Virus record (IMG/VR): IMGVR_UViG_3300036761_001580
Span: 69,198-133,197 of that record
DNA from: a virus
Strand: one strand, 5' to 3'
Length of the DNA stretch: 64,000 nt
Below are positions 34,377-36,812 of the stretch, piece by piece. The notes under the pieces were generated by a model. The model was not told the DNA's origin. It saw nothing but the letters and a program-made list of their open reading frames with translations, and searched no databases. Each line of letters begins with the position of its first letter. Positions within the stretch are counted from its first letter, which is position 1. A program made the translations under genes and the position numbers.

Positions 34377-34387
34377 AAATCCTTTAG

Positions 34388-34750
34388 TGGACCGGGGGGT
34401 ATCGAAACCCCGTCCAGTAGAGTCTAGCGTTCACTTCGTTACGTGCGTGGTCGCGCTGAAGGTCTAGGAGAGCGCCGCGCGACTGCGCTCCCAGGGTCCA
34501 GGCTGCTTCTCGGTGCGACCTGTCAAACCGTTGTTTGCTCGTCTCGAATTGCGCCGGCCGGGCGAGTTACGAGCACCTCGCACGTCCGACGTTCCCTAAG
34601 CGGCCCTCTGGAGCGAGGGCACGGCCATCTTCGGGAAGGGGATGACATCCGCATCGGCGTTTGTCTTGTGAAAGCCTTTTTATCTCGCTGGCTTACGAGC
34701 GGGGCACGCAGTGAACACCGTCACATCCACCGTCGAAACCTTTCCGGCCC
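34388..34750 (-). ncRNA. tmRNA-like (ssrA-like) RNA, ~360 nt
   Basis: 5' GGGCCGG...GGUUUCGACGGUGG and 3' GGACGGGGU-UUCGAUA-CCCCC-CGGUCC-A pair as a tRNA-like acceptor/T-arm matching tmRNA termini; candidate tag ORF ...ADADVIPFPKMAVPSLQRAA-UAG ~100 nt from 5' end; own class B promoter; no protein-coding potential. Confidence 0.5.
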
Positions 34751-34790
34751 AGGATAGACTGCCGAGTTTTCAAAGAGCGGAGCAGCTACC

Positions 34791-34820
34791 TATATAAGGC
34801 TGAGTGAGCAGGATGTCAAG
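34791..34820 (-). promoter_or_regulatory. class B promoter driving the tmRNA-like RNA
   Basis: revcomp: gcctcTTGACAtcctgctcactcagccTTATATAggtag; lies downstream of the stop of 34824..36812. Confidence 0.5.
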
Positions 34821-34823
34821 AGG

Positions 34824-36812
34824 CTAGAGAACTGGTTCTTCCTCATCCTCATTGTCGAACTCGTAGCTCTCCATGATGAAGTTTTTCAAGCGGTCCGTTT
34901 CATCGACCGAAACGTACCCTTCCATGTAGGGCATCTTCAGCCCGTGGTCCGGATGGCTATCGCTCCAGCGAACGCCGGTACCCATCACCTGCATCGCCAG
35001 GTAGTGACCGAAGTCACTGCGGTCGAAGTAGTCGTCTTCGCTCTGTCCCGGGGGTAGGAAGGTAGCGAGATCGATCCCGTTCGCCTGCTCGATGGCGTCG
35101 TACATCTTCTGAGCCACCTGGTAGGCTTCGGGCTCTGTCGGCGGGGCGAGGTCCATCAGCTCAGCTCCTTGGAAATTGGGAACTTCGATGTCAGCCGCGG
35201 CACCTGCCTCTTGGAGGAACTTGCGGTCGTAGTCTTGGAAGAGATTCTCCCACTCGTTCGCCCAGCTGCTCACGAAAATCGCCCGAGCCATCGCGTCCAA
35301 GATCTCGTTCCCGGTATCGGCAGACTGCGCCTTGAAGATTCTCGCGATCCTCGCCAGCCCCTCGTCCGGAACACCCTTGTACATCCCTGCCTCCCTTGCG
35401 CCAGCTCTCTGCTTCGGCTGGGTGTAGTCCTCGGCTCCGTGGGCGAGCGCCAGCTCCGCGCCGGCCTGGTCGACCGGGTAGGCGTACCCGTCGATAGGCA
35501 CGAGCGCGAGCCCGCCGCGGTACTTCACCAGACGGGCATCCTCCTGCTCGACCATCCGTACGATGGCGTCGTCCTGGGTGCTCATCTGGGCCCTGAGACG
35601 CAGGCCGGGCTTCTTCCGGAAGGGACCCCAGACATAATCATTCCAATTGAATTTTTCTAAGCCTTGCTGCTCCGGCGTGGGGGCCATCTCCTCCATCTCG
35701 TCGGGGTTCAGCTCCTCCTCGTCCGAGGGGAGCTGTGGAGCTGCCTGGGCTCTGCGTCGAGCACCCCTTCCGGACATCTCCTCCTCGGAGAAGCCCTCGA
35801 ATCCGGGCGGAAGACGCGGTGCTGGAGTACCCAGGGGGAGCCTCTGTCGCAGAGGATCCGGGTTCTTCCCCCGTCCGTACCCCTCGAAGCTGGCGGGTTC
35901 CTTGCTCGGCTCCTCTTCGGTCTCTTCGTACTCGTGCTCACCGGTATCTTCGTTCACCCAGTGACCGTTGCCCATGTCGACCCACTGCGCCCTGCGCCGG
36001 CCACCCTTGAAGGGGAGCGAGGTCTGCCGAGGATCGACAGGGTTGGGCCCGGTGGCGAAACCCTCCGCACCGGGATCAGGCTCCTCGTAGTCCTCGTCAC
36101 CCGGCTCGGGTGGAGGCATCTGCGGGACGATGACCTCCTCGATCCACTCGTCGATGATGCTGTCATCCGGGTAGTACCCGTGATCATCGTCGGACTGCAT
36201 GTCGTGGGGGTCATTGTCCTTCGCCCAGTCCATGAAGTTGGCCGCGGCGGTGTCCGAGTCCATCACCGTGTCCCAGTGCTCCTGGACACGCTCGTTCGGA
36301 TAGCTGTTCAGGCGGCTCGGAACAGCGTACTCGCAGTTCTCGACAGCAGCCTCGAACTCCATCTCGCTGAGCCTGTTCTCGTCGAGGATGGGGTAGTTCT
36401 TCAGGCGGAGCTGGATCTCGGCCCACGCCTTGAACGCCGGGGTGAGGGTGCCATCCGGCTCGTACACGCGGATCGAGTAGCCGTCCACATGCCCGACAGC
36501 CCAGTGCCCGTGGCTCTCCGCCACGACCTGGTCCTCGGGGAACTGGCCCATGATCTCCTCGATGGCCGCAGCGTTCGCCTGATCGGTGAGCCCCGAGTCC
36601 CTGTTCGAGGTGTAGACGATGGTCCAGTTCTCCGGGTTCTCCTCGGGCTGGCTGCCCCACCCGAACGACTCGAACTTCTGCCAGTTGCCGACGAGCTTCT
36701 CAGCGAGATCCTGAGCGTACTCGTCCTCCATCAGAGCCTTCTTCTCCAAAGAGGGCTTCACCACCGCAGAAGCGATCCTGCCGTACCCATCGTCCACGAT
36801 TCCGCGTCTCAT
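34824..36812 (-). CDS. large hypothetical protein (662 aa), acidic
   Basis: Long GC3-rich ORF; no motif recognised by eye. Confidence 0.75.
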   Translation of the reverse strand: MRRGIVDDGYGRIASAVVKPSLEKKALMEDEYAQDLAEKLVGNWQKFESFGWGSQPEENPENWTIVYTSNRDSGLTDQANAAAIEEIMGQFPEDQVVAESHGHWAVGHVDGYSIRVYEPDGTLTPAFKAWAEIQLRLKNYPILDENRLSEMEFEAAVENCEYAVPSRLNSYPNERVQEHWDTVMDSDTAAANFMDWAKDNDPHDMQSDDDHGYYPDDSIIDEWIEEVIVPQMPPPEPGDEDYEEPDPGAEGFATGPNPVDPRQTSLPFKGGRRRAQWVDMGNGHWVNEDTGEHEYEETEEEPSKEPASFEGYGRGKNPDPLRQRLPLGTPAPRLPPGFEGFSEEEMSGRGARRRAQAAPQLPSDEEELNPDEMEEMAPTPEQQGLEKFNWNDYVWGPFRKKPGLRLRAQMSTQDDAIVRMVEQEDARLVKYRGGLALVPIDGYAYPVDQAGAELALAHGAEDYTQPKQRAGAREAGMYKGVPDEGLARIARIFKAQSADTGNEILDAMARAIFVSSWANEWENLFQDYDRKFLQEAGAAADIEVPNFQGAELMDLAPPTEPEAYQVAQKMYDAIEQANGIDLATFLPPGQSEDDYFDRSDFGHYLAMQVMGTGVRWSDSHPDHGLKMPYMEGYVSVDETDRLKNFIMESYEFDNEDEEEPVL

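Follow-up and report, generated by a model that had tools for sequence, protein, structure and literature searches.

The 64,000-nucleotide stretch of DNA analysed here (the window) covers positions 69,198 to 133,197 of the IMG/VR virus record IMGVR_UViG_3300036761_001580; its G+C content is ~60%, and most of its genes lie on the minus strand. An earlier note, made from the letters alone, had read one segment of the window as a structured RNA resembling transfer-messenger RNA (tmRNA, SsrA) with a promoter of its own, and this identification was borne out by two tools. ARAGORN called a tmRNA at 34387-34750 (-), with the tag ADADVIPFPKMAVPSLQRAA and its stop encoded at gene positions 93-155, and the Rfam tmRNA covariance model RF00023 matched 34385-34750 (-) from end to end (model positions 1-374 of 374), with a score of 74.0 bits (E = 6.7e-27), where the gathering score is 47. 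Run over all 64 kb, ARAGORN and Rfam at gathering thresholds arrived at the same two RNA genes, this tmRNA and a tRNA-Pro. The tmRNA gene (34385..34750 (-)) is full length and of the one-piece form, ~363 nt, and the mature RNA probably runs from 34750 to 34388, the discriminator A, plus an added CCA. Both end sequences quoted in the earlier note match the window exactly, and the tmRNA-like spacing that it gave for them is correct. The segment had also been described as free of open reading frames (ORFs), which holds for real genes, but a mechanical 104-aa antisense ORF is present at 34443-34757 (+). Since its G+C content at third codon positions (GC3) is only 0.56, against ~0.8 in real genes, and since it is broken up in the relative L027 (see below), we do not regard this ORF as a gene.

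The analysis could be extended to four further copies of the tmRNA, found on other viral contigs and referred to here by their locus numbers. These are L002 (IMGVR_UViG_3300031952_000001, 211,982 bp), with the gene at 12075-12443, the tag ADADVIPFPKMAVPSLQREAA and an RF00023 score of 82.3 bits; L027, at 3989-4356, with ADANVIPFPTMAVPSLQRAA and 109.4 bits; L029, at 6022-6388, with ADADVIPFPTMAVPSLQAAA and 79 bits; and the more distant L035 (IMGVR_UViG_3300029288_003754), at 1211-1573, with AKTNVIPFPIMAPAPMECAA and 80.6 bits. Among the window, L002, L027 and L029 (the four close copies), the tmRNA is 80-91% identical in pairwise comparisons; for scale, between the window and L027 the 662-aa protein encoded just upstream of the tmRNA is 44% identical, and a protein encoded downstream that resembles the Major Vault Protein (MVP) is 88% identical. 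A collection of 50,697 phage genomes held no DNA-level relatives, either by megablast of 30000-40000 or by blastn of the tmRNA at a sensitivity set for distant matches, and tblastn of a 1029-aa neighbouring protein against the same collection gave no match. Exact-pattern scans of IMG/VR with the 5' and 3' ends of the tmRNA returned a single match, the 212-kb relative L002, and an 18-mer from the core of the tag returned four. The 18-mer matches L036 and L037 were set aside, as neither yields a tmRNA call and the one in L036 falls in coding sequence. No tmRNA was found within ±8 kb of the distant homologues of the 662-aa flanking protein in L030-L034.

The tRNA-like domain of the molecule is closed by an acceptor stem whose 5' strand GGGCCGG (34744..34750 (-)) and 3' strand CCGGUCC (34389..34395 (-)), the latter read from the sequence and followed by A-C-U-A, pair at 7/7 positions. 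These seven pairs, already proposed in the earlier note, include G3:U70, formed by G3 at 34748 with the U at 34391, and the discriminator A is present. G3:U70 is invariant in the five phages, and acceptor pairs 4-6 have changed on both sides. Both ends of the tmRNA were re-aligned by hand before compensation was counted, after which three acceptor pairs and four pairs of the T stem were found to be compensated. The T arm, GGGG-UUUCGAUA-CCCC (34396..34411 (-)), is one base below the canonical size, with a one-base deletion in the Rfam alignment. An arm had been predicted at this place, and it is present; its quoted 5-bp stem ending in CCCCC, however, cannot stand beside the acceptor strand CCGGUCC, since GAUA and GGUCC are separated by only six C's, and stem and strand therefore count one C twice. 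The window arm can be drawn either as GGGG/CCCC with an 8-nt loop or as GGGGU/ACCCC with a 6-nt loop. L027, L029 and L035 have canonical T arms of 5 bp and 7 nt, with stems that are fully compensated. The T-arm core GGGUUUCGAUACCC, shared by the window and L002, recurs in tmRNAs of metagenome-assembled genomes (MAGs) of Acidimicrobiia and other Actinomycetota (loci L006, L009, L016-L020, L022 and L023).

The interior of the RNA folds as expected of a one-piece tmRNA. The pairings of helix 2, of the tag hairpin and of four H-type pseudoknots (PK1-PK4) were assigned by hand and counted on an alignment of the four close copies. The 82 internal pairs, in 12 helices, form standard pairs in 96.6% of cells, and 11 of them have changed on both sides, a count that was reached by 0/500 shuffles; in controls in which the 3' partners were slid by 1-3 columns, 31-42% of cells pair and 0-1 pairs have changed on both sides. 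In tmRNA numbering, PK1 (34672..34701 (-)) consists of stems 50-53/62-65 and 57-61/75-79, with C60-G76 replaced by U-A or U-G. PK2 (34537..34591 (-)) consists of stems 160-174/185-199 and 177-182/209-214 and has four pairs changed on both sides, stem 1 alone accounting for four compensated pairs. PK3 (34499..34530 (-)) is formed by stems 221-224/237-240 and 229-233/248-252, with A230-U251 replaced by G-C in L027 and L029 and, in stem 1, a U-A replaced by C-G in L035. For PK4 (34450..34492 (-)), formed by stems 259-266/276-283 and 268-274/295-301, C264-G278 becomes U-A in L002; the register 257-263/281-287, given by ViennaRNA for its first stem, was rejected because it breaks in 3/4 sequences, whereas 259-266/276-283 never breaks. 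The distant copy in L035 retains the acceptor stem with G3:U70, a canonical T arm, helix 2d, both stems of each of PK1-PK4 and also H1, and several of its retained helices, the PK1 and PK4 stems included, are built from different sequence. The conserved pseudoknot architecture that the earlier note had asked for is thus present, with four pseudoknots supported by covariation among orthologues.

Upstream of the gene lies a promoter at the hexamers named in the earlier note: a -35 element TTGACA (34814..34819 (-)), read directly from the sequence, and, after a 17-nt spacer, a -10 element TATATA (34791..34796 (-)). In the four close copies CTCTTGACATC at the -35 element is invariant and the -10 element reads TATA(T/C)A, so the promoter motif is kept in all four, while the adjacent upstream coding sequence is unalignable. 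L035 has its own promoter, TTGACA-17-CATATT, nearer to the tmRNA gene. A simple promoter scan missed the tmRNA promoter because its rule accepts only -10 hexamers whose sixth letter is T. The motif TTGACA-N16-18-TATAHW has five occurrences in the window, where 0.02 would be expected, and because of this enrichment the phage appears to use host promoters of the sigma-70 type. The four further near-consensus sites lie at 14337-14364 (+), 16856-16883 (-), 41403-41430 (-) and 44783-44811 (-).

The mature G1, at 34750, stands about 34-37 nt past the expected start site. From this distance between the -10 element and G1, the precursor would carry a 5' leader of ~34-37 nt (34751..34786 (-)), with a putative RNase P-type cut at G1. 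Parts of the leader are conserved, among them CTCTTTGA(A/C)AAC, and a candidate pairing joins CUCUUUGA in the leader to UCAAAGG in the trailer. A simple scan for terminator-like sites in 33000-36000 found none. At the other end, CCA is encoded in L002 and L029 and not in the window, L027 or L035. CCA may be added after transcription, as happens with many tRNA genes, so that its absence from the gene does not disqualify the RNA.

The tag frame (34596..34658 (-)) opens with the resume codon GCC at 34658 and comprises 20 codons and the stop UAG at 34598-34596; ARAGORN and the Rfam alignment agree on it, and the latter sets GCC (tmRNA position 93), which is not a start codon, on the resume codon of the model. 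An alanine-initiated tag ending in AA had been predicted, and the peptide given by ARAGORN, with its C-terminal end ...VIPFPKMAVPSLQRAA, is identical to that prediction. The frame is open in all five copies. Among the four close copies the 60-nt frame and the remaining RNA change about equally fast. Of the 11 codon changes in the frame, 8 are synonymous (binomial P = 0.0012 at p = 0.25), and the pairwise proportions of nonsynonymous differences (pN, 0-0.08) lie below those of synonymous differences (pS, 0.13-0.51). As judged from these codon changes, it is the tag peptide that is under selection and not only the RNA fold. All five copies share the core VIPFPxMA and the terminal AA; position 4 is taken by D or N, and the residue at -3 varies between R, E, A and C. 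The tags are 20-21 residues long, compared with 9-14 in the bacterial tags recovered by a pattern search, which end in LAA, MAA, FAA, AVA or VYA. In E. coli an adaptor binds the N-terminal part of the tag, and ClpX its C-terminal LAA; if the phage tags work in a similar way, their conserved core could serve for recognition and AA as the signal at the terminus. A supposed resemblance to a cyanobacterial tag start, N-(I/V)-V-P-F-like, was dropped, as a literature search for those strings found nothing, and it carries no weight here. The unusual point, as far as the five sequences tell, is that related phages of one small group have kept a 20-residue tag, and since the peptide is under selection in five diverged copies, the phage appears to care what rescued proteins receive.

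The tmRNA heads a short cluster of RNA genes, the layout of which is seen most simply in L027: promoter, tmRNA, a ~75-nt spacer, tRNA-Met, a ~140-nt structured element ending in a stem and a T-run, tRNA-Pro, and then a promoter and the MVP-like gene. In the window the cluster ends with tRNA-Pro(tgg) (33554..33630 (-)), which was called by ARAGORN and by RF00005 at 48.3 bits and is syntenic in L002 and L027. A 162-aa homing-type endonuclease gene of the HNH_3 type (33888..34376 (-); PF13392 1.7e-11, phrog_20891 7e-41) stands directly behind the tmRNA; both of these neighbours had been recognized in the earlier note. The HNH gene begins 9 nt behind the tmRNA gene (AAAGGA, then GTG) and ends exactly where the conserved spacer starts, and it is probably co-transcribed with the tmRNA. 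Its GC3 is 0.45, against ~0.8, and the gene looks like a recent insertion. At the same junction L002 (12464-12835 (+)) and L029 (about 6400-6780) carry an unrelated 123-aa HNH gene, and L027 and L035 carry none. On this comparison, the junction just past the 3' end of the tmRNA is a hot spot at which free-standing HNH endonuclease genes insert. The window gene opens with GATGGTTGGCAGGGTG, which is similar to the opening of the spacer that it displaces, TGTTGGCAGCGGGTC.

The displaced spacer is a conserved non-coding trailer of ~75 nt (33812..33886 (-) in the window, 4357-4433 in L027, about 1574-1660 in L035). It is nearly invariant in the four phages and recognisable in L035; in L027 and L035 it stands immediately behind the tmRNA. 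The predicted fold contains a GC-rich hairpin of 10 bp, and because of a one-base indel there is no conserved reading frame; the trailer might serve in processing, resemble a terminator or be a small RNA. Behind it, where L002 and L027 carry a tRNA-Met(cat), the window holds a 30-nt hairpin, GTGCAGG-CGGGATTCGAACACTA-CCTGCAC (33782-33811 (-)), a tRNA-Met remnant ~41 nt shorter that neither ARAGORN nor Rfam calls. Between this remnant and tRNA-Pro lies a conserved structured element of 144 nt (33634-33777 (-)), with a minimum free energy of -63.8 kcal/mol (z = -2.25), closed by a 13-bp long-range stem and followed by a T-run, with six covarying pairs among three phages. Neither the trailer nor the 144-nt element had a credible Rfam match at E <= 1.

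The wider surroundings are viral. The 87 ORFs of the window matched 23 Pfam families, none of them a housekeeping family, and the matches include DUF2786/DUF7168, the HNH endonuclease and, weakly, Kyanoviridae Gp96; the majority of the ORFs matched no family. Families of an anti-defence type are represented by a Tad2-like protein (1.1e-19), Lar restriction alleviation (6.7e-5) and DpnD/PcfM (8.4e-6). ClpP and Lon families were not found among these ORFs, and no capsid or terminase genes were identified within the 64 kb. An IS605-family TnpB gene lies at 22787-23995 (-) (OrfB_IS605 2.1e-30, with a Cas12f1-like TNB domain and an HTH). The 662-aa protein just upstream of the tmRNA has 100% identical copies on a 205,564-bp JGI contig and on a Logan contig, and a 76%-identical copy on the L002 record, IMGVR_UViG_3300031952_000001. 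Downstream, a 912-aa protein (30747-33485 (-)) combines the Major Vault Protein shoulder (PF11978, 1.8e-29) with vault repeat domains; its gene has the highest GC3 of the window (0.94) and its own promoter, TTGACA-16-TAGACT, a promoter-like site at 33525-33498 (-). Homologues of the MVP-like protein with 43-44% identity occur in the huge-phage records LR756500, LR756501 and LR756503 (462-735 kb), and a vault-protein-like gene that is conserved in jumbo phages merits attention of its own. Because of the gene content, the 205-212 kb contigs that carry the flanking protein and the MVP-like gene common to published huge phages, we assign the window, on its sequence, to an uncultivated jumbo phage.

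Two features give weak hints of the host. The short T arm GGGGUUUCGAUACCCC of the window and L002 is otherwise found mainly in tmRNAs of MAGs of Acidimicrobiia and other Actinomycetota, and a distant relative has a weak match to the mycobacteriophage L5 gp81 family. The bodies of the MAG tmRNAs align poorly with the phage RNA (55% mean column identity), and an Actinomycetota origin of the gene was rejected on account of this dissimilarity; the shared T arm is at most a host hint, or it could reflect an exchange with the 3' end of a host ssrA. The earlier note had further seen in this region a phage-borne toolkit for translation rescue and proteostasis. Matches of the chaperone and L12 type do exist: a DnaJ J domain with an HPD motif (1.5e-5), C-terminal in a 141-aa protein (27007-27432 (-)); a Trigger_C match (1.9e-4, just below the Pfam cut-off) in a 448-aa protein (60975-62321 (-)); and an L12 C-terminal domain match (7e-4) in one window ORF. 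A stretch resembling RMF (3.6e-5, below the cut-off) was seen in a 474-aa protein (46215-47639 (-)), and among relatives L030 and L031 carry Cpn10 and L032 carries Ribosomal_L12. The matches are, however, weak and distant, and give the toolkit idea weak support; those that could be located lie 7-27 kb from the tmRNA and are not co-located with it.

We propose that the segment is a functional one-piece tmRNA of an uncultivated ~205-kb jumbo phage that acts through host factors, a reading to which we assign a probability of about 0.85. What the sequences show directly is family membership, architecture, the G3:U70 pair, promoter conservation and selection on the tag peptide. In the proposed mechanism, the sigma-70-type RNA polymerase of the host would transcribe the gene from TTGACA-17-TATATA into a precursor with a ~35-nt leader, and the ends would then be matured like those of a tRNA, by an RNase P-type cut at the 5' side and, since CCA is not encoded in the window copy, by trimming and CCA addition at the 3' side. 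Host alanyl-tRNA synthetase (AlaRS) would charge the RNA with alanine via G3:U70. Together with EF-Tu and SmpB, the latter presumably supplied by the host, since none was found in the window, the charged RNA would enter ribosomes stalled on broken or stop-less mRNAs. Translation would resume at the GCC of the internal frame and add ADADVIPFPKMAVPSLQRAA, and termination at UAG would free the ribosome and mark the truncated protein. The benefit to the phage would probably be that ribosomes are kept available during infection, as host mRNA is destroyed or the host supply of SsrA falls. Transcription, processing, charging, the use of host SmpB, the fate of the tagged proteins and the benefit to the phage we infer for this tmRNA.

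Several observations weigh against this proposal. The T arm of the window and L002 is one base short, the base missing from the 3' strand in the Rfam alignment; CCA is not encoded in the window copy, whose 3' end is ...CCGGUCC-ACUA; stem 1 of PK2 has two non-standard pairs in the window copy; the phage tags have R, E, A or C at -3, where the recovered bacterial tags have L, M, F, V or Y; and the SmpB family was not found (E <= 1e-3) among the 87 ORFs of the window, which represents 64 kb of ~205 kb. As to the first of these points, the same one-base-short form, with four G and four C, occurs in the MAG tmRNAs L006, L009 and L019, which suggests that a short T arm may work. The absence of SmpB, for its part, bears on the autonomy of the system and not on membership of the tmRNA family.

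Alternatively, the gene could be a decoy, soaking up SmpB or AlaRS and thereby inhibiting host trans-translation, as has been suggested for phage DS6A (PMC4131195), or it could be a pseudogene; the short T arm and the unencoded CCA of the window copy fit both. Nevertheless, we consider either very improbable, given a full-length gene with all of its pseudoknots maintained by compensatory changes and a tag frame that is open in five copies and under purifying selection, whereas a decoy needs no conserved tag. Mobile elements often integrate at ssrA, and if the DNA were bacterial the window might show a host chromosomal ssrA, or a fragment of one duplicated at a prophage integration site. Integration hot spots that include ssrA are listed in PMC11476347. 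This explanation is scarcely credible for the present locus: the match spans the full model, with a promoter of its own, and is not a 3' fragment; the 23 Pfam families among the 87 ORFs include no housekeeping family; the gene order is conserved on contigs of 205-212 kb that IMG/VR classes as viral; a neighbouring gene is common to published huge phages; and no smpB lies nearby.

The remaining alternatives accept a working tmRNA and differ over its purpose. It is possible, if rather unlikely, that the phage-specific tag re-routes rescued products to another adaptor or protease, or shields them from the host pathway. The VIPFPxMA core and the terminal AA kept in five phages around a varying -3 residue (R, E, A, C), the selection on the peptide sequence and a length of 20-21 residues, which exceeds the 9-14 of bacterial tags ending in LAA, MAA, FAA, AVA or VYA, would all agree with such a role; however, the window yielded no gene for a candidate adaptor or protease, the phage tag may be no more than a copy of the host's own, and a terminal AA is compatible with ordinary ClpXP-type recognition, going by general knowledge of the E. 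coli tag. A more elaborate version, which we hold to be doubtful, is that a group-specific tag of two parts, (D/N)VIPFPxMA and AA with a free -3 position, is read by a dedicated phage or host factor, so that its products would be handled unlike host-tagged ones, while the tmRNA would form a unit with the ~75-nt trailer RNA and the junction would be a recurrent HNH target. Equally doubtful is a counter-defence role, in which the tmRNA would relieve the stalling that results when host abortive-infection nucleases cut mRNAs or tRNAs, much as phage tRNA genes replace cleaved host tRNAs. The clustering of the tmRNA with tRNA genes and the Tad2-like, Lar and DpnD/PcfM families in the window are in keeping with it, and otherwise the case is one of general reasoning; but the anti-defence genes are not adjacent to the tmRNA, and sequence data alone cannot separate this role from a general one in rescue. 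A functional tmRNA working through host factors hence stays our preferred reading, and its consequence for annotation is that the segment be labelled ssrA (tmRNA), phage-encoded.

A tmRNA carried by a phage is a known kind of cargo, to which the present gene adds another lineage. It is not a new kind, since phage tmRNAs are already documented (PMC4131195, PMC7162821): ssrA has been reported from eight cluster-C-type mycobacteriophages, Wildcat and Bacillus phage G, and in DS6A as little more than a tRNA-like domain (PMC4131195; PMC1475703; PMC12484599), the list of ssrA-bearing phages being given in PMC4131195 and the mycobacteriophage counts in PMC1475703. Metagenomic huge phages have also been found to carry tmRNA together with SmpB (Al-Shayeb et al. 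2020, PMC7162821). Phage tmRNAs have thus been catalogued, yet their function has hardly been studied. What is added here, by comparison of sequences, is a small set of diverged copies in which a phage-specific tag is under selection, together with repeated HNH insertions and two conserved RNA elements without an Rfam match.

With bacterial one-piece SsrA, as in E. coli, the present RNA shares the acceptor stem with G3:U70, a T arm, a long helix 2, PK1-PK4, an alanine resume codon, a tag ending in AA before the stop and a length of ~363 nt. It differs in being carried by a phage, in its 20-residue tag, which has a core rich in proline and R at -3 in place of a hydrophobic residue, in a T arm that is one base shorter, in the unencoded CCA and in that no smpB was detected in the window. 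The tmRNAs of Bxz1, Catera, Wildcat and phage G are likewise full-length, with atypical tags, and belong to large lytic phages with many tRNA genes; the tag of phage G has been reported as AKLNITNNELQVA (PMC12484599). Unlike these mycobacteriophage and phage G genes, the present one has a tag family and a lineage of its own and showed no blastn similarity to anything in the 50,697-genome collection. A parallel in setting is offered by the tmRNAs of huge phages (PMC7162821), which were also found with ARAGORN, in uncultivated phages of >200 kb with other translation genes; three records of that collection, LR756500, LR756501 and LR756503, share the MVP-like neighbour gene (43-44% identity) with the present phage. 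Those huge phages, however, include some with a phage SmpB, whereas none is seen in the 64 kb of the present window. Finally, DS6A resembles the present case in carrying a phage-borne ssrA derivative, but that derivative amounts to hardly more than a tRNA-like domain and has been suggested to be an inhibitor (PMC4131195), whereas the gene described here is complete and has a conserved tag frame.

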